64,000 nt of DNA from a phage (GCA_019566135.1 GCA_019566135.1_3044.1), one strand, 5' to 3'. Shown: positions 552 through 51,003, numbered from the stretch's first letter. Made by a program: numbers and translations. The notes: generated from the sequence alone by a model not told the origin.

Positions 552-1730
552 TTAAAAGTATTTTTTAAAACTCATCATAACTTTATCATCAACATCATTA
601 TCAATCTGTGCTACAAGGTAAGATGACAGCTCTACTTCTTGCGGTGCAGATTGAACATTATCAGAATTAAGATATTCACGAATCCAAGGATATGGATGTT
701 TAACCGGAGCATCGGTAATTGGGCATGGAAGACCACACTGTTTCATACGAGATACAGTTAAGTAATCAATAAAGCTCCACATGCTATTTGTATTTAATCC
801 AGGAACATCGCCATCTTTAAATAAATGAACTGCCCAATCTTTTTCTTGGCGGTTAACTTCCATGAAAATATCAACTGCTTCTTGTTCACACTCTTTGGCA
901 ATTTTAACCCATTCATCACCATCAGTGCCAAGTTGAAGTTGACGAATAATATATTGTGTACCTTTAAGATGAAGCTGCTCATCACGTGCAATGAACTTCA
1001 TAATCTTGGCATTACCTTCCATGATTTCCATGTTCTTATGGAAGTTAAAGGTACATGCGAAAGATACATAAAAACGAATAGCTTCCAATGCGTTGATTAC
1101 GTGCAGGCAGAGGTAAAGAGAGCGCATTAGTTCACGTTTCCAATACATTTCATGCTCTATGGCATCTTCAATAACGTCTTCGTCTGCATTAATTTCTTTT
1201 TGGTATTCGATATCAGCTTTAGCGTTTTCCCAATAACGAGTTTTAATCAGAACATCATCATAATAACGTCCAATGGATTCAGCACGTTTCATAATAGCTT
1301 CATCTAATACAATTTCATCAAATACTTTCGATGGATCAGTATAAAGATTTCGCATGATATGTGTATATGAACGGCTGTGAATAGTTTCACTAAAAGTCCA
1401 CGTAGCAACCCATGTATCAAGGCTTGGGTCTGAAATTAATGACATAAGTACAGCAGACGGCGCACGACCCTGAATGCTATCCAAAAGTGATTGATACTTC
1501 AGGTTATTAGTAAAAATATTTTGCTGATACTGAGGAAGCTTATTAAATTGCGCAGCATCCATCATTAAGTTTACTTCTTCAGGACGCCAGAAAAATGACA
1601 ACTGCTTTTCGGTTAAATCTTCAAAAACTTTATGACGTTGAATATCATAACGCGCAATACCAAGACCTGAACCAAAAAACATAGGTTCTTTTAAAACATC
1701 AACTGGATTTGTATTAAAAACTGTGCTCAT
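552..1730 (-). CDS. nrdB: Ribonucleotide reductase small subunit, uninterrupted (no intron)
   Basis: 392-aa ORF with R2-type ferritin-like motifs; position downstream of nrdA. Confidence 0.9.
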   Translation of the reverse strand: MSTVFNTNPVDVLKEPMFFGSGLGIARYDIQRHKVFEDLTEKQLSFFWRPEEVNLMMDAAQFNKLPQYQQNIFTNNLKYQSLLDSIQGRAPSAVLMSLISDPSLDTWVATWTFSETIHSRSYTHIMRNLYTDPSKVFDEIVLDEAIMKRAESIGRYYDDVLIKTRYWENAKADIEYQKEINADEDVIEDAIEHEMYWKRELMRSLYLCLHVINALEAIRFYVSFACTFNFHKNMEIMEGNAKIMKFIARDEQLHLKGTQYIIRQLQLGTDGDEWVKIAKECEQEAVDIFMEVNRQEKDWAVHLFKDGDVPGLNTNSMWSFIDYLTVSRMKQCGLPCPITDAPVKHPYPWIREYLNSDNVQSAPQEVELSSYLVAQIDNDVDDKVMMSFKKYF

Positions 1731-1781
1731 AAATTTTCCACTTAGTTAATAGATAGTGACTCGTCCATGAGTCAAATTATA

Positions 1782-4046
1782 TCATAATTTACAGGATGAA
1801 CAATCTTCAGCTTTTGGAGTTTCTATTTCATAATCATCAGTACCAGAACCATCACGGGTATTATGATAATAGAAATTTTTTCCGCCAAAATACCAAAAAT
1901 ACAAAAGGTCATCAATCATTATTGACATTGGAACCTTTCCTTTTGGAAAAATCTGTGGGTCATAATATGTATTCGCCGAAGCTGATTGACAAACCCATTT
2001 CAGCATAATAGCTACCTGCGTAAGATAAGGTTTATTACCTTTCTTAGCTAATTTCCATGTATAATCATAGAGGTCTATGTTATGCTCAATATTGGGCACG
2101 ACTTGATTAAAGGAGCCCTCTTTTGATTCTTTAACAGAGACTGGTCCACGTGGAGGCTCGATACCGTTTGTACTGTTAGAAACTTGGGAAGATGACTCAC
2201 ATGGCATAAGTGCTGATAATGTGCTATTACGGATGCCAAAGAGCTTAAGGTCTTCCCGCAGCGACGACCAGTCACAAACGTATTTTGGAGCTGCGATTTG
2301 GTCAATCTTTTTATTGTACCAGTCGATAGGTAATTCGCCTCGAGACCAACGAGTGTCTGAATAATATTCGCAAGGTCCTTTTTCTTTGGCGAGCTTAATG
2401 GATGCTTTAATGAGTCCATACTGTAATCTCTCAAATAGTTCATGTGTTAAATCGTTAGCATCTTCATAAGAAGCAAAGTTACTTGCCAGCCAAGCTGCAT
2501 AGTTAGTAACACCTACACCGAGGTTACGACGCTTTTTAGCTTTTTCTGCTTCAGGAACTGGATATCCTTGGTAATCCAAAAGATTATCAAGAGCACGAAC
2601 TTGGACTTCTGCCAATTCATTAATTTTATCTTGGTCTTGCCAGTCAAAATTATCCAGTACGAATGCAGAGAGAGTACACAATCCAATTTCAGCATCAGGA
2701 CTATTCACATCATTTGTTGGAATAGCAATTTCACAGCACAAGTTACTCTGACGAATAGGTGCCTTTTCACGAATAAACGGAGTATAGTTATTCGTATTAT
2801 CAATGAACTGCACATAAATCCTTGCTGTTCCTGAACGTTCAGTCATGAGCAATTCAAATAGTTCACGGGCTTTAATACGCTTTTTACGAATATTAGGGTC
2901 TTTTTCTGCTGCTTCGTATAATTCACGGAAACGGTCTTGGTCTTTAAAATAAGAATAATACAGCTCTCCACCCATTTCATGTGGACTGAACAAAGTAATG
3001 TAATCGTTCTTTCCGAATCGTTCCATCATCAAATCATTCAGCTGAACGCCATAATCCATATGACGAATGCGGTTTTCTTCTACGCCTTTGTTATTTTTCA
3101 AAACGAGAAGATTTTCAACTTCCAAATGCCAAATAGGATAATAAGCAGTAGCAGCGCCGCCACGAATTCCACCCTGTGAGCATGATTTAACAGCAGTCTG
3201 AAAATGTTTCCAAAAAGGAATAACACCAGTATGGCGTACTTCACCCATGCCAATCTTAGAACCTTCGGCACGAATCATACCAACGTTAATACCAATTCCA
3301 GCACGTTTGGAGATATATTCAACAATTGAAGCGGAAGCCTTATTGATAGACTTTAATGAATCACCTGCCTCAATAACAACGCATGAACTAAACTGTCGAG
3401 TCGGAGTACGGCAACCAGCCATAATAGGAGTTGGCAATGAAATCTGTCGAGTAGATACTGCTTCATAAAAACGAATAACGTGTTTTAATCTATCAACAGG
3501 TTCATCTTGATGCAATGCCATTCCAATAGTCATAAATGCAAACTGTGGAGTTTCATAAATTTGACCGGTGGTTTTATCTTTAACTAGATATTTTTCTTTT
3601 AATTGCATCGCCCCGGAATAAGTAAATTCCATATCCCGCTCGTGCTTAATTTTTGATTCTAAAAATGTAATTTCTTCTGCTGAATATTTTGACAATAATT
3701 CAGGGTCGTATTTACCTTCATTTACGCAATAAGAAATATGGTCAATAAATGAACGTGGTTCATATTGTCCGTAAACATGCTTACGAAGAGCGAACATTAA
3801 ACAACGTGCAGCTACATATTGATAATCAGGCTCTTCAACCGAAATAGAATTCGCAGCAGCCTTAATGACAATAGTCTGAATATCATCAGTTGTCATTCCA
3901 TCACGGAGATAAGATTTAATATTTTCATATAATTCATAAGGATCTACTGATGTTCCTTCAGCTGCCCAAGATAAAACTTTAATAATTTTTTGTGGGTCAA
4001 AGCTCTGAGAAACACCACTACTTTTGATAACATTAATTAATTGCAT
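1782..4046 (-). CDS. nrdA: Ribonucleotide reductase large subunit
   Basis: 754 aa, same length as T4 NrdA; class I RNR motifs; C-terminal CSSCKL. Confidence 0.93.
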   Translation of the reverse strand: MQLINVIKSSGVSQSFDPQKIIKVLSWAAEGTSVDPYELYENIKSYLRDGMTTDDIQTIVIKAAANSISVEEPDYQYVAARCLMFALRKHVYGQYEPRSFIDHISYCVNEGKYDPELLSKYSAEEITFLESKIKHERDMEFTYSGAMQLKEKYLVKDKTTGQIYETPQFAFMTIGMALHQDEPVDRLKHVIRFYEAVSTRQISLPTPIMAGCRTPTRQFSSCVVIEAGDSLKSINKASASIVEYISKRAGIGINVGMIRAEGSKIGMGEVRHTGVIPFWKHFQTAVKSCSQGGIRGGAATAYYPIWHLEVENLLVLKNNKGVEENRIRHMDYGVQLNDLMMERFGKNDYITLFSPHEMGGELYYSYFKDQDRFRELYEAAEKDPNIRKKRIKARELFELLMTERSGTARIYVQFIDNTNNYTPFIREKAPIRQSNLCCEIAIPTNDVNSPDAEIGLCTLSAFVLDNFDWQDQDKINELAEVQVRALDNLLDYQGYPVPEAEKAKKRRNLGVGVTNYAAWLASNFASYEDANDLTHELFERLQYGLIKASIKLAKEKGPCEYYSDTRWSRGELPIDWYNKKIDQIAAPKYVCDWSSLREDLKLFGIRNSTLSALMPCESSSQVSNSTNGIEPPRGPVSVKESKEGSFNQVVPNIEHNIDLYDYTWKLAKKGNKPYLTQVAIMLKWVCQSASANTYYDPQIFPKGKVPMSIMIDDLLYFWYFGGKNFYYHNTRDGSGTDDYEIETPKAEDCSSCKL

Positions 4047-16180: not shown

Positions 16181-17296
16181 ATGGAAAAATTTATGGCAGA
16201 GTTTGGACAAGGATATGTCCAAACGCCATTTTTATCGGAAAGCAATTCAGTAAGATATAAAATAAGCATAGCGGGTTCTTGCCCGCTTTCTACAGCAGGA
16301 CCATACGTTAAATTTCAGGATAATCCTGTAGGAAGTCAAACATTTAGCGCAGGCCTTCATTTAAGAGTTTTTGACCCTTCCACCGGAGCATTAGTTGATA
16401 GTAAGTCATATGCTTTTTCTACTTCAAATGATACTACATCTGCTGCCTTTGTTAGTTTCATGAATTCTTTTTCAAGCAATAGACTTGTTGCTATATTAAC
16501 TAACGGAAAGGTTAATTTTCCTCCTGAAGTAGTATCTTGGTTAAGAACAGCAGGAACGTCTGCTTTTCCATCTGACTCTGTATTGTCAAGATTCGACGTA
16601 TCATATGCTGCTTTTTATACTTCTTCTAAAAGAGCTATTGCATTAGAGCATGTTAAACTGAGTAATAGAAAAAGCACAGATGATTATCAAACTATTTTAG
16701 ATGTTGTATTTGACAGTTTAGAAGACGTCGGAGCTACCGGGTTTCCAAGAAGAACGTATGAAAGCGTTGAGCAATTTATGTCAGCGGTTGGTGGAACTAA
16801 TAACGAAATTGCCCGTCTACCTACAGCATCTGCAATAAGTAAACTTTCTGACTATAATTTAATTCCTGGAGATGTTCTTTATCTTAAAGCACAACTATAT
16901 GCTGACGCTGATTTATTAGCGTTGGGAACTACTAATATTTCAATTCGTTTTTATAATGCGTCGAATGGATATATTTCCTCGACACAAGCTGAGTTTACTG
17001 GACAGGCTGGGTCTTGGGAATTAAAGGAAGACTATGTAGTTGTTCCAGAAAATGCAGTTGGATTTACGATATATGCACAGAGAACTGCTCAAGCGGGACA
17101 AGGCGGTATGCGAAATTTAAGCTTTTCTGAAGTATCAAGAAATGGCGGAATTTCAAAACCTGCTGAATTTGGCGTCAATGGTATTCGTGTTAATTATATT
17201 TGTGAATCTGCTTCACCTCCGGATATAATGGTACTTCCTACGCAAGCATCGTCTAAAACTGGTAAAGTGTTTGGGCAAGAATTTAGAGAAGTATAA
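16181..17296 (+). CDS. 35: Long tail fibre hinge protein gp35
   Basis: 371 aa; immediately after gene 34. Confidence 0.88.
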   Translation: MEKFMAEFGQGYVQTPFLSESNSVRYKISIAGSCPLSTAGPYVKFQDNPVGSQTFSAGLHLRVFDPSTGALVDSKSYAFSTSNDTTSAAFVSFMNSFSSNRLVAILTNGKVNFPPEVVSWLRTAGTSAFPSDSVLSRFDVSYAAFYTSSKRAIALEHVKLSNRKSTDDYQTILDVVFDSLEDVGATGFPRRTYESVEQFMSAVGGTNNEIARLPTASAISKLSDYNLIPGDVLYLKAQLYADADLLALGTTNISIRFYNASNGYISSTQAEFTGQAGSWELKEDYVVVPENAVGFTIYAQRTAQAGQGGMRNLSFSEVSRNGGISKPAEFGVNGIRVNYICESASPPDIMVLPTQASSKTGKVFGQEFREV

Positions 17297-17301
17297 ATTG
17301 A

Positions 17302-17327
17302 GGGAGCCTTCGGGTTCCCTTTTTCTT
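17302..17327 (+). terminator. Terminator-like hairpin after gene 35
   Basis: GGGAGCC-UUCG-GGUUCCC followed by UUUUUCUUU. Confidence 0.55.
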
Positions 17328-17335
17328 TATAAATA
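17328..17335 (+). promoter_or_regulatory. Late promoter TATAAATA for genes 36-37
   Basis: Exact TATAAATA 23 nt upstream of the gene 36 ATG. Confidence 0.7.
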
Positions 17336-17358
17336 CTATTAAAATAAAGGGGCATACA

Positions 17359-18018
17359 ATGGCTGATTTAAAAGTAGGTTCAACAACCGGAGGCTCTGTC
17401 ATTTGGCATCAAGGAAATTTTCCATTGAATCCAGCCGGTGACGATGTACTCTATAAATCATTTAAAATATATTCAGAATATAATAAACCGCAGGCAGCTG
17501 ATAACGATTTCGTTTCTAAAGCTAATGGTGGTACTTATTTAAATAAGGTAATTTTTAATAAAGGAATGACTGTCCCTGGCGCAGGGTCAGGTGACAATGG
17601 TATTTTTGCTGGTCCTGGTGATAACGCCACGTATGATACTACAAATATAGATATTGTTTCGTGGTACGGTATTGGCTTTAAATCATCACAAGGTTCAGCA
17701 GCCCGAACTGTTGTAATTAATACACGTAATGGTGATATTAACACAAAAGGTGTTGTATCAGCATCAGGTCAAGTAAGAAGTGATGCGGCTGCTCCTATAG
17801 CAGCAAATGACCTTACTAGAAAGGACTACGTTGATAGAGCAATAAATACTGTTACAGCAAATGCGGATTCTAGAGTTTTACGCAAAGGTGATACCATGAC
17901 AGGTAATTTAACAGCGCCAAACTTTTTCTCACAGAATCCTGCGTCTCAACCTTCTCACGTTCCGCGATTTGATCAAATCGTAATTAAGGATTCTGTTCAA
18001 GATTTCGGCTATTATTAA
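17359..18018 (+). CDS. 36: Long tail fibre distal connector gp36
   Basis: 219 aa; position and size. Confidence 0.88.
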   Translation: MADLKVGSTTGGSVIWHQGNFPLNPAGDDVLYKSFKIYSEYNKPQAADNDFVSKANGGTYLNKVIFNKGMTVPGAGSGDNGIFAGPGDNATYDTTNIDIVSWYGIGFKSSQGSAARTVVINTRNGDINTKGVVSASGQVRSDAAAPIAANDLTRKDYVDRAINTVTANADSRVLRKGDTMTGNLTAPNFFSQNPASQPSHVPRFDQIVIKDSVQDFGYY

Positions 18019-25484: not shown

Positions 25485-25494
25485 TATTTATTCC

Positions 25495-47628: not shown

Positions 47629-47838
47629 TTAAATTACATGATTATTTATAATAAATTCTCGCGGAACGTTAAAATATCCGATTTTAGTTAATATAACAAC
47701 ATCACCGTTAATAATTACCGGAGAATAATCTTCTGGAGTGTTAAATTTCCAATGGGATCTAATATTATATCCATCAGAACCAAATGCTCGAGTAGCCGGT
47801 CTCCCGGCTTTTTGCCACGCGTAGAAATCAAATTTCAT
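47629..47838 (-). CDS. Hypothetical protein (69 aa; soc.1 position)
   Basis: ORF. Confidence 0.5.
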   Translation of the reverse strand: MKFDFYAWQKAGRPATRAFGSDGYNIRSHWKFNTPEDYSPVIINGDVVILTKIGYFNVPREFIINNHVI

Positions 47839-48029
47839 TTTGAATGCTCTATAATTAATTTTAAAGCTTCTTCACTGACAAAAATTTCGTCAGGACCTTC
47901 TATAACTTCAACCATACGAAGTTGATTAGTTAAGAGCTCACATACGAGCTCCTTGTTATAATCTTTAAATAGCTGGTCAATACGTTTCTTATGGGCTTTC
48001 TTAAGCTGACGCTTATTTAAACGAGCCAT
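47835..48029 (-). CDS. Hypothetical protein (64 aa; soc.2 position)
   Basis: ORF. Confidence 0.5.
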   Translation of the reverse strand: MARLNKRQLKKAHKKRIDQLFKDYNKELVCELLTNQLRMVEVIEGPDEIFVSEEALKLIIEHSK

Positions 48030-48547
48030 TAATAACCTCGGTCTTGACGAGCGAAGTTTTCAGCATTTTTCAGGTAATAAAGTTTAAAGATTTCTTCAGC
48101 CGACATTCCAAGAGCAATAAATTTATTCATGAAAAAGTGAAATTGGTCAATCAGTTCAAATTTAATTTCAAGCTGATCTTCAGGAGATAAGTCTTGAATT
48201 TTCTTGGATTGCATTTCAGAATAACGTTTCTTCCAAGGTTTCCATACAGCAGAAGCTTCTTTTTCACCATTACTCATACCACCAAGAGAAGTATATAGCT
48301 CGCGAGTTTCGTCTGCGATATAATCGTCTTGGTTTCGCAGCCAAGCAAGAACTTCTCCTGCAGTTTCAAGTGAATCAGGATGACGATTTGTTTCTGGTTT
48401 ATCATTAGCCAAACGAATCTGTAAATGCCGCTGCATGTCAAGCATAACCTGCAATGGGTCAATACTGTGCATAATATACTCAGCATATGCACGATTTGCT
48501 TTATCAACACCTTCGATCAAATGAGCACATTCATTAAAGTGAGCCAT
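48029..48547 (-). CDS. 56: dCTPase/dUTPase gp56 (MazG-like), 172 aa from ATG 48547
   Basis: MAHFNECAHLIEGVDKANRAYAEY...; AAAGGA SD; track's longer ORF is an upstream read-through. Confidence 0.85.
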   Translation of the reverse strand: MAHFNECAHLIEGVDKANRAYAEYIMHSIDPLQVMLDMQRHLQIRLANDKPETNRHPDSLETAGEVLAWLRNQDDYIADETRELYTSLGGMSNGEKEASAVWKPWKKRYSEMQSKKIQDLSPEDQLEIKFELIDQFHFFMNKFIALGMSAEEIFKLYYLKNAENFARQDRGY

Positions 48548-48618
48548 TATTTTTCCTTTCAATTCATGGGTTAGTAGATTAATTATACAATAAATATATA
48601 AAGCAATAAGGAGGACAT

Positions 48619-48819
48619 ATGGTACAAAAATTAATGGCACTTGTTAATGCCATAAAAGGTAATAAAAAACGTATAGCTTTTACTATTTCTGCTATGGTAG
48701 GAATTTTACTCTGGAACTTTATTTTATCACCAATTGCAATTGCGCATGGTGTTAATATTCCAGTAGTTACTCTTGATACATTTGTAGATTTAGCATTTGC
48801 TTTAGTTGGGTTGATTTAA
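48619..48819 (+). CDS. Small membrane protein on the opposite strand (66 aa)
   Basis: Strong SD AAGGAGG 5 nt before ATG 48619; two hydrophobic segments; converges on gene 61, overlapping its stop by 4 nt. Confidence 0.55.
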   Translation: MVQKLMALVNAIKGNKKRIAFTISAMVGILLWNFILSPIAIAHGVNIPVVTLDTFVDLAFALVGLI

Positions 48820-49844
48820 ATCTTAGCATATTTAGATAGCCGCATTTTAGCCATCAACCCCTGGGCAATATTATTTTTCATATATTCCATAATTTGTTCA
48901 GGGGTTGCACCTTCCTTTCTAATCATATCATTAACATCTTTAGATTTCCAGGGAGATTTATCCCAAAACATAATCCTTTCTCCTGCATCAACTAATTTAG
49001 TCATTCGTTTGATAGTGTCAGGGTGACGAGGTTCATTATCTAAAACCCACACTCGTCTATCTTTAAATGGAACAACTTCTAGGTCTAATTGACCACCCGT
49101 AATAGCTATACCATTTTCAATAAAAAGTGAATCTATAGGTCCTTCTAGAACATATACATCACCATCTTTAACTCGTTCAACACCGTAAATTTTTGTTGCC
49201 TCAGGATAAGCTTTAATGGTGATATATTTTTGAGGAGCATCTTTCTTTAATGCACGTCCTTGAAAAGACTCAGCTTTTCCATTAGCATTATAAATTGGAA
49301 TAACAAGACGAGGCTCAGAAATTTCCTTTTTGTATGTTCCCGGTGCTATACTATTAACTAATTTAGGCCATTCGGTTGTAAACCAAAGATATTTCCATTT
49401 ATCCTTTGGAATACAACGAGCTTTTACATATTTTATAATTGGATGGTCTTCCGCCAGTTTATCTAATCTAACACATGACGGAAGAGATTTAATTATTTTC
49501 TTCTCAGGTTGCTTAGGAAGTTCTTTAGGTTTTTCTACTGGACGACTTTTACCTTTTTCTTTTCTTATTTCAAAGATATACTCACGATATAAATCAGGTT
49601 CAAACTCCTTTAAATATATTCCGATTGGTGCATGATAATTACAGTTATAACAATGAATATTTCCTTCATTATTATCACCATAATACCATCCACGAGCTTT
49701 ATTCTGGTCGGTTTTTGAATCTCCACAAACTGGACATCTAAACCGCAATTTAAAAGTTGAACTATTATTTACTTGTGTGAATTTAGGTAAATGAGCTAAT
49801 GCACGGTATGCAAACTCATTATCAATCCAAGGTATTGATGACAT
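48816..49844 (-). CDS. 61: DNA primase gp61
   Basis: 342 aa (same as T4 gp61); N-terminal zinc ribbon CPVCGDS...CYNC. Confidence 0.93.
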   Translation of the reverse strand: MSSIPWIDNEFAYRALAHLPKFTQVNNSSTFKLRFRCPVCGDSKTDQNKARGWYYGDNNEGNIHCYNCNYHAPIGIYLKEFEPDLYREYIFEIRKEKGKSRPVEKPKELPKQPEKKIIKSLPSCVRLDKLAEDHPIIKYVKARCIPKDKWKYLWFTTEWPKLVNSIAPGTYKKEISEPRLVIPIYNANGKAESFQGRALKKDAPQKYITIKAYPEATKIYGVERVKDGDVYVLEGPIDSLFIENGIAITGGQLDLEVVPFKDRRVWVLDNEPRHPDTIKRMTKLVDAGERIMFWDKSPWKSKDVNDMIRKEGATPEQIMEYMKNNIAQGLMAKMRLSKYAKI

Positions 49845-49846
49845 TT

Positions 49847-50011
49847 TTACTCTTCTTTTTCTTTAGATTCCTCTTTTTTCTTTTTAGGAATCTGCTCAGG
49901 ACCTTTATTTACTACAGCGCCTGACGTTGTTCCAGTAGAGATATTTTCAGGATTACCACCTGAATCTCCAGCGACCATATCTTCTTTAATAAATTCTTTA
50001 TATGTTTTCAT
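49847..50011 (-). CDS. Small hydrophilic ORF (54 aa, MKTYKEFIKEDMVAGDSGGNPENISTGTT...)
   Basis: GAGG SD; its start lies inside junction repeat copy A. Confidence 0.4.
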   Translation of the reverse strand: MKTYKEFIKEDMVAGDSGGNPENISTGTTSGAVVNKGPEQIPKKKKEESKEKEE

Positions 50012-50057
50012 ATTAACCTCTATTCATAAAAGCATTAAAAATTTGGTCATCAATAGA
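50009..50057 (-). repeat. 49-bp gene-junction direct repeat, copy A
   Basis: 46 of 49 nt identical to 50367-50415; covers last 12 codons, stop, SD and ATG. Confidence 0.8.
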
Positions 50058-50369
50058 TGGCGCAGTAATATTTTCTGCATCATTTAGTAAATCATTAATT
50101 TCATCAGATAGCATAACACATGTACCTTTATTTCCTGTAATTGTTACTGCACAATTACGAACGTTTTCTTTATCAAATTTTAGGTTAATATTTTCGTAGT
50201 GAAAATCCTTTAATGCCGAATATATCTTTAAAATGAAATTGTCTTTTACTACAATAAACCCAACCTCACTATTAAAACGCGGTTCATGGAAACTGTAATA
50301 AACCTTTTCATCTATAAAATCGTATGAAATTTTTTCCATTTTTAAATATGAAAATTCAGAACTATACAT
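50013..50369 (-). CDS. Hypothetical protein (118 aa), truncated paralog of the next ORF
   Basis: Shares FIVVKDN motif and C-terminal SIDDQIFNAFMN(R/K)G with 50371..51003. Confidence 0.55.
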   Translation of the reverse strand: MYSSEFSYLKMEKISYDFIDEKVYYSFHEPRFNSEVGFIVVKDNFILKIYSALKDFHYENINLKFDKENVRNCAVTITGNKGTCVMLSDEINDLLNDAENITAPSIDDQIFNAFMNRG

Positions 50370-50415
50370 ATTAACCTTTATTCATAAAAGCATTAAAAAT
50401 TTGATCGTCAATAGA
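50367..50415 (-). repeat. 49-bp gene-junction direct repeat, copy B
   Basis: See copy A. Confidence 0.8.
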
Positions 50416-51003
50416 AACTTTTACTTTAGGCTGTTCTTCAAACGGTAATTCATATCCACATATTACAATTTTGTGATCGATACCAAAATACACAGAAGCA
50501 ATATTATTAATATTATTTTCAGTGAAATCTAAATCAACATCAATATCTTTTTGACTAACGCTCAAAGGATAATTAATACGAATAATTCGATTATCTTTAA
50601 CAAAGATTCCACCGACATACTCTGTGCTGCGTTTAAAGTTTACACGTTTCCTAAATGAAAAATATTCAGGTTCTTTATGGGCTCGACTCATAGGGCTTAA
50701 AGTGTATTCCGAATATGAAATATCAAATCCTACACCTTCAATATGAGCCAAAGTGTCATGATTAAACCAATTATAATCGTATGCCAAATCCATTAAATTG
50801 TAATATGTGAAAGGCACCGGATTAACATCATATGTTGTACCTTTAAAATCTGCCCAGGCAACGATTTCGTTATCTTTAACAATTACAAAAATTGTGCCAA
50901 TAAGATATCCACGGTTATTTTCATCAGGCGTTATATTATAACATTGTGCATCAGGAAATTTACCGTATTTAAACGGTGGATTTTTGTGCATATAATAAAT
51001 CAT
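50371..51003 (-). CDS. Gene 61.2-position protein (210 aa); possibly the anti-DarT factor AdfA family
   Basis: Position between 61 and sp; internal repeats of an IFVKDN-like motif; AdfA assignment is from memory of the literature. Confidence 0.45.
   Translation of the reverse strand: MIYYMHKNPPFKYGKFPDAQCYNITPDENNRGYLIGTIFVIVKDNEIVAWADFKGTTYDVNPVPFTYYNLMDLAYDYNWFNHDTLAHIEGVGFDISYSEYTLSPMSRAHKEPEYFSFRKRVNFKRSTEYVGGIFVKDNRIIRINYPLSVSQKDIDVDLDFTENNINNIASVYFGIDHKIVICGYELPFEEQPKVKVSIDDQIFNAFMNKG

Follow-up and report, generated by a model that had tools for sequence, protein, structure and literature searches.

What occupies the short interval between genes 56 and 61 in a T4-type phage that has no dam there, and does it stand in dam's place? 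We examined this locus in a 64-kb stretch of phage DNA (64,000 nucleotides; hereafter the window), which is a segment of a Tequatrovirus (T4-type) genome. An earlier note on this sequence had placed dam between the two genes in T4 and had proposed that this phage carries instead, on the opposite strand, a gene for a small membrane protein with a possible sigma-70 promoter. This placement is accurate: in the T4 reference genome (NC_000866) dam lies at 16846..17625, between 56 and 61. The 801 bases around the open reading frame (ORF) in the window are 98.9% identical to phage UFV-AREG1, and a 24-kb stretch of the window, for which no identical database record was found, is 97.1% identical to phage JLBYU31, the closest complete relative, whose whole genome was analysed.

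A small gene on the opposite strand

The gap between gene 56 (dCTPase, an allele type other than that of T4; 48029..48547, minus strand; phrog_173, E = 2.7e-44) and gene 61 (DNA primase; 48816..49844, minus strand; phrog_47, E = 3.4e-106) is 268 bp long, close to the 270 bp first estimated. The sole ORF of any length that it contains is the 66-aa hydrophobic one described earlier, located on the plus strand at 48619..48819 (ATG start, 66 aa and stop), with the product MVQKLMALVNAIKGNKKRIAFTISAMVGILLWNFILSPIAIAHGVNIPVVTLDTFVDLAFALVGLI. The ORF converges on gene 61, as had been noticed, and the two stop codons (48817-48819 and 48816-48818, respectively) produce a 4-nt overlap. The near-perfect Shine-Dalgarno (SD) sequence, AAGGAGG, is present at 48608..48614 on the plus strand, although a direct count gives a spacer of 4 nt (ACAT) to the ATG rather than the 5 nt originally reported; GGAG(G) is kept upstream of the ORF across all genera compared. 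In JLBYU31 the ORF is the lone plus-strand CDS among the first 172 features (~79 kb), which bears out the view that opposite-strand genes are rare in the early region. Beyond gene 61, in the 61.1-61.2 region, two minus-strand ORFs of 118 and 210 aa (50013..50369 and 50371..51003) share the C-terminal motif SIDDQIFNAFMN[RK]G and resemble tandem paralogues; in the same region T4 has one annotated gene, 61.2.

A tblastn search found the ORF in 693 phage records, comprising ~503 from Tequatrovirus at 90-100% identity and 190 from Mosigvirus or Gaprivervirus at ~44-56%, always adjoining the primase and dCTPase genes and on the opposite strand. Sixty-eight records are at least 99% identical to the window ORF, six of them at 100% among the matches listed. 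Dhakavirus Bp7, Jiaodavirus KP179, and Gelderlandvirus STML-198 likewise carry a small opposite-strand ORF at this position (66, 63, and 69 aa, respectively), so that the interval between 61 and 56 is occupied in this way in six genera (Tequatro-, Mosig-, Gapriver-, Dhaka-, Jiaoda-, and Gelderlandvirus). Their products have the common core W-N-[FYL]-x3-P-x-A-x3-G-x2-[LIV]-P-x3-[LM]-[DE]-x-V. A profile search returned 116 clusters. Their members are ~56-74 aa long, except for a small number of truncated fragments (41-51 aa), and all come from phages of the T4 type or from bacterial assemblies in which such phages are contaminants. An IMG/VR scan added 10 more loci and no further genera. In Gaprivervirus DK-13 and Dhakavirus Bp7 a homing-endonuclease gene lies between the ORF and gene 61.

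The ORF is absent from Karamvirus Pet-CM3-4, Pseudotevenvirus RB43, Krischvirus (in which genes 61 and 56 abut), and Aeromonas Tulanevirus. Because it is missing from several related genera, the ORF is a non-essential, Tevenvirinae-specific accessory gene that is dispensable in some lineages. The 61-56 slot of the Cronobacter phage Pet-CM3-4 holds a same-strand ORF of 94 aa (1671..1955 of the analysed locus), which resembles, by eye from its EExxE/D-rich helices, a mini MazG-type pyrophosphohydrolase.

The gene has already been catalogued. Its product matches the unnamed PHROG 2024, a family of "unknown function", at E = 1.5e-31, with residues 2-66 aligned to the full length of the profile (positions 1-65 of 65), and members of this family such as ANH50173.1 (UFV-AREG1), RB68_032, and ACP30675.1 represent the same gene at the same position and on the same strand. 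Every source calls it a "hypothetical protein", save one UniProt entry named "Holin", a weak and unsupported label. The earlier note had named a conserved, annotated plus-strand gene in this interval of reference phages as something that would count against its proposal; there is one in hundreds of relatives, though not in the T4 reference. We found no paper on the ORF in the literature on T4 ribosome profiling, unannotated ORFs, or start-site maps; a T4 dRNA-seq preprint (bioRxiv 10.1101/2024.04.04.588121) describes 150 phage start sites, of which 22 are antisense.

The pattern of substitution points to a translated sequence. The frame is open for 63-69 codons in six genera. Nei-Gojobori estimates of dN/dS within each of Tequatrovirus and Mosigvirus are ~0.12 (0.115-0.13). 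Of the variable columns, 45, 21, and 56 fall at the first, second, and third codon positions, respectively (3rd > 1st > 2nd). Between genera, synonymous sites are saturated and ~50% of residues are kept, and amino-acid motifs are retained at 18-55% identity. We weighed these data against the reading that the ORF is untranslated and its open frame incidental, with its conservation stemming from a minus-strand terminator of gene 61 and from the gene 56/oriA promoter. Both elements can be recognised. A terminator-like hairpin, ATGGCA-N8-TGCCAT followed by TAATTTTTGT, lies on the minus strand at 48634..48653, 3' of gene 61 and within codons 6-12 of the ORF, and a terminator is annotated at this place in the Yersinia phage fPS-65; a promoter with a MotA box overlaps the 5' flank. 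The hairpin occurs in T4 and the window and is confined to Tequatrovirus; it was not found in Mosig-, Gapriver-, Dhaka-, Jiaoda-, or Gelderlandvirus. It therefore cannot account for conservation across six genera, and the terminator was ruled out as the cause. Together with the low dN/dS, the bias of change towards third positions, the retention of amino-acid motifs where synonymous sites are saturated, the conservation of a strong SD, and a frame that stays open in every lineage despite AT-rich DNA, this leaves an untranslated ORF with next to no credibility. The ORF is a genuine, conserved small-protein gene (~65 aa) of the subfamily Tevenvirinae.

Independence of the gene from dam

The same gene is present in T4 itself. 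An unannotated 309-bp gap between dam and 61 in NC_000866 contains the ORF (17738..17938, plus strand), and its product is identical to that of the window at 64 of 66 residues (97%). It carries no annotation there or in X01416 (Macdonald and Mosig, 1984), a record that annotates many promoters and terminators around it. T4 is a reference organism, and the omission of a conserved, selected gene from NC_000866 leaves a minor but genuine hole in its gene list; screens and proteomics based on that annotation are blind to the ORF.

The T4 copy also decides the question of replacement. The phage could be seen as carrying a membrane gene, driven by a sigma-70 (early) promoter, in dam's place as an unusual gene replacement, since dam is absent, the ORF is present, and the hexamers TTCATG-17-TACAAT do exist on the plus strand (48564..48592; hexamers at 48564-48569 and 48587-48592). 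Because T4 carries dam and the ORF side by side, the ORF does not stand in for dam, and the proposal that it occurs "instead" of dam does not hold. In fPS-65, dam and a further gene lie between 56 and the ORF. The ORF thus adjoins dam in T4 and dam plus another gene in fPS-65, and it is present regardless of dam, from which we conclude that it is unrelated to the presence or absence of dam. The proposed promoter fares little better: its hexamers are where they were said to be, but the -35 matches TTGACA at only three of six positions, the site was not returned by a consensus promoter scan, and the surrounding sequence is not common to the dam-carrying phages T4 and fPS-65. An early promoter on the plus strand would also run against all known early and middle transcription in T4, the transcripts of which are of one polarity, while late transcripts may have either (Geiduschek and Kassavetis, PMC2988020). 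The early and middle polarity corresponds here to the minus strand. We regard gene replacement as very improbable.

A comparison of the window with T4 by blastn delimits two homology blocks, and the window is collinear with T4 on both flanks of their junction. The first (48608-49900; 97.3% identity) starts exactly at the SD of the ORF and continues through gene 61, and the second (48066-48587; 74% identity) covers gene 56. The junction itself spans 48588..48607, where T4 has dam and fPS-65 has dam and one more gene. The dam cassette is an insertion at 48588-48607 in terms of the window, between the predicted promoter of the ORF and the middle promoter of gene 56. The proteins on the two sides differ in their identity to T4 (69.8% for gp56, 97% for the ORF product, and 99.1% for gp61). 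A sharp mosaic boundary hence separates gene 56 (48029-48547) from 48608-49844. The gp56 allele of the window is found in ~164 records at an identity of at least 95%, and it is 82% identical to a Karamvirus gp56. In the place that segF has in T4, downstream of 56, there are two small minus-strand ORFs (47629..47838 and 47835..48029). The SegF homing endonuclease has been reported to drive marker exclusion of gene 56 alleles.

The interval contains no methyltransferase ORF, as had been observed, and a tblastn search with T4 Dam found no homologue anywhere in the 64-kb window (best E = 4.8). Nor was a Dam homologue found in the closest complete relative: tblastn searches of the whole JLBYU31 genome gave best E-values of 0.2-0.3 with T4 and E. 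coli Dam as queries, where the T4 positive control gave 8e-177. Absence of Dam is therefore shown for the locus and the window, and the whole genome of this phage probably lacks it too. This is commonplace. T4-type Dam, at an identity of at least 90%, is found in ~182 phage records, compared with ~503 Tequatrovirus records with the ORF, and T4-type dam is absent from most Tequatrovirus records. It is an accessory cassette, present in T4 and T2 and in roughly one in three Tequatrovirus records, and its absence is a common polymorphism among T4-type phages. The Dam target GATC is ~3-fold under-represented in the window (72 observed, ~207 expected from base composition) and occurs 1.2 times per kb in the JLBYU31 genome, a rarity seen despite both phages being without dam.

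Late-promoter motif and predicted expression

A motif scan returned a predicted gp55-type late promoter upstream of the ORF. The motif, AATAAATA, is the variant with A at -13 and lies on the plus strand at 48589..48596, 22 nt upstream of the ATG. The T4 late consensus, TATAAATA at -13 to -6, is perfect in 32 of 50 T4 late promoters and has A at -13 in 9 of 50 (PMC2988020), and T at -13 is poorly conserved in relatives of T4 (Nolan et al., PMC1524935). In our comparison, each of the 17 loci (three genera) has an ATAAATA core 16-22 nt ahead of the ATG, the motif being GATAAATA in T4 and fPS-65, AATAAATA in Mosigvirus, and CATAAATA in Gaprivervirus. The core is also found upstream of the ORF in Bp7 (Dhakavirus; TATAAATA, perfect) and KP179 (Jiaodavirus; CATAAATA), and STML-198 (Gelderlandvirus) has ATTAAATA there. 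Most genera match the consensus at seven of eight positions rather than perfectly, with A, G, or C at -13 and T only in Bp7. The flanks of the motif differ between phages, and its position relative to the MotA box on the minus strand varies by genus. The motif itself falls within the junction at which the window and T4 lack homology, and it is kept on both sides of the dam indel. Because the motif is conserved, we infer that a gp55-dependent late promoter drives the ORF, with a predicted transcription start near 48602 (equivalent to ~17,722 in T4) and a leader of ~17 nt.

The motif is not abundant in this DNA. NATAAATA is under-represented in the 64-kb window: a first-order Markov model predicts ~17 plus-strand and ~21 minus-strand copies, and 8 and 5, respectively, were counted. 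Half of the plus-strand copies (four of eight) are found 18-34 nt upstream of a start codon, namely those of genes 34, 36, and t and of the ORF, and one of the five minus-strand copies precedes soc. The other copies, at 17841, 22319, 36735, and 39213 on the plus strand and at 25492, 22873, 9505, and 4321 on the minus strand, have no obvious start codon nearby.

The predicted late promoter shares its position with a promoter on the opposite strand. Reading from the sequence, we identified the middle promoter of gene 56 on the minus strand, with a MotA box (TGCTTTA, 48599..48605) separated by an 11-nt spacer (48588-48598) from a -10 element (TATAAT, 48582..48587). It corresponds to P(M)16.53 of T4, the promoter for the oriA primer, which X01416 annotates, and the fPS-65 record annotates a predicted middle promoter at the equivalent place. 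The two promoters are interlocked within 48582-48607: AATAAATA lies inside the 11-nt spacer, and the predicted late start (~48602) falls within the MotA box. Part of the conservation of the late motif could stem from this overlapping or adjoining MotA promoter.

Taken together, we consider it probable that the ORF is a real, conserved Tevenvirinae gene, independent of dam, that encodes a small membrane protein expressed late in infection. The arrangement of the locus also invites a reading in which RNA is the main product, a late transcript that runs antisense into 61 and opposes the gene 56/oriA promoter, with the peptide secondary. The two genes converge with a 4-nt overlap, no plus-strand intrinsic terminator was found over ~4.5 kb downstream of the ORF, and the late motif sits in the spacer of the oriA middle promoter. 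Several sites in T4 are known to be transcribed on both strands at different times (PMC2988020). Set against this, purifying selection at the protein level and the strong SD indicate that the peptide matters, and in DK-13 and Bp7 the ORF is retained even though an endonuclease gene separates it from 61. RNA as the main product is thus quite unlikely. An antisense role additional to that of the protein is possible and would be compatible with a late membrane-protein gene.

Predicted product and comparison with known T4 proteins

The membrane-like character ascribed to the product is borne out. An AF2 model built from a 31-sequence alignment (mean pLDDT 74) has an amphipathic N-terminal helix at residues 2-12, followed by a long helix at 16-42, a loop at 43-51 (HGVNIPVVT), and a third helix at 52-63 that, at 12 residues, is too short to cross a membrane. 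The best 19-residue hydropathy window is 2.0. Across the six genera there are four to six K and R residues before the hydrophobic helix and zero or one after it, and, by the positive-inside rule, this predicts an N-in, C-out topology. The most conserved residues cluster on the outer side, in the outer half of the transmembrane helix and the juxtamembrane periplasmic stretch, which suggests that the business end of the protein faces the periplasm. We also considered a P-x-A-x-A motif just before H43-G44 as a candidate signal-peptide cleavage site; the hydrophobic core, at ~24 residues, is long for a cleavable signal peptide. There is no K or R beyond R18, and trypsin would release LMALVNAIK as the one usable peptide and a hydrophobic peptide of 48 residues. 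With no K or R after residue 18 the protein should be nearly invisible to tryptic proteomics, and this shortage of peptides could explain why proteomics has not flagged it.

Searches beyond the family returned little. The window protein had no match in Pfam at E-values up to 10, and NCBIfam gave only a sub-threshold chance match to one homologue and not to the window protein. The best hits of a PDB profile search (E = 0.1) were unrelated proteins, and Foldseek against BFVD returned family members only. An exhaustive phmmer search of 1.84 billion representatives recovered small Tevenvirinae proteins only, plus three long repeat proteins that we judged spurious (summed hydrophobic repeats).

One specific function to be weighed is that of a lysis-timing factor, holin-, antiholin-, or SAR-like, working at the inner membrane alongside T, RI, or RIII. 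The product is a small membrane protein of predicted late expression, and it has at least one transmembrane helix (AF2 16-42), as a holin does. Its gene shares the AATAAATA variant and the style of SD with the holin gene t, and the "Holin" label in UniProt, weak as it is, points the same way. SAR domains are rich in Ala, Gly, Ser, and Thr. In several genera the transmembrane segment is fairly rich in these residues, which make up 7-10 of its ~24 positions (counted by eye, an uncalibrated measure). Several features fit a holin poorly. The protein has no charged hydrophilic C-terminal tail (it ends in ...AFALVGLI, with no K or R), no holin family was matched in Pfam, and its neighbours are 56 and 61, with e, t, and the spanin genes elsewhere. 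An M1...K4...M6 pattern, the dual-start motif of holin/antiholin pairs, was dropped from consideration, being unconserved outside Tequatrovirus. Similarity to RI was not found in any search, and the predicted periplasmic part is ~24 aa. T4 already has a complete lysis set, and we know of no mutants that classical T4 lysis genetics mapped at this locus. A role in lysis timing is accordingly a possibility that we entertain only tentatively.

Returning to the late membrane-protein gene that we favour, the following sequence of events can be proposed. Early in infection the ORF would be silent, with early and middle transcription on the other strand. Late in infection, RNA polymerase with gp55, gp33, and gp45 would start ~6 nt after the conserved AATAAATA, giving a transcript with a ~17-nt leader that bears the near-perfect SD. 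Translation, to which the signature of selection points, would yield the 66-aa protein. The basic N-terminus (five K/R) is predicted to remain in the cytoplasm and residues ~19-42 to cross the inner membrane, placing the W-N-x4-P-x-A-x3-G-x2-[LIV]-P-x3-[LM]-[DE] stretch and a short amphipathic C-terminal helix at the periplasmic face. There the protein may bind or modulate an envelope component late in infection; this step is speculative, with the timing or inhibition of lysis as the foremost candidate. Because no plus-strand intrinsic terminator follows the ORF, the late transcript would run antisense into gene 61. A broader proposal is that T4 and its relatives have, in this unstudied late inner-membrane micro-protein, a new player in late envelope events, for example a modulator of lysis timing or inhibition or a late shield in superinfection or defence, and that its promoter is interlocked with the middle promoter of oriA/gene 56 such that late transcription would also oppose the use of the origin. 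Taken as a whole, we consider this proposal unlikely.

Among known T4 proteins, Imm, RI, and Ac resemble the ORF product, as do class II and III holins, in having ~50-100 aa, one hydrophobic helix, and a basic cytoplasmic end. The ORF product has no sequence or profile similarity to any of these, and it differs from them in lacking a charged C-terminal domain and in having a periplasmic part of only ~24 aa; judged by its promoter type it would be late, unlike the early Imm. In its expression signals the ORF resembles the T4 late genes t and soc: the NATAAATA motif lies 18-30 nt upstream of the start codon, the leader is short, and the SD is strong. The holin gene t of the window has the same AATAAATA variant as the ORF, and soc is, like the ORF, a late-type unit within the early region. 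Unlike these genes, the ORF has a promoter that is predicted and that seldom has T at -13 within the family, and it stands alone on the plus strand amid ~79 kb of minus-strand genes (JLBYU31). As a lone, putatively late gene in a long early block, with its predicted promoter nested in the oriA primer promoter, the ORF would provide a test case for the switch from early to late transcription on opposite strands.
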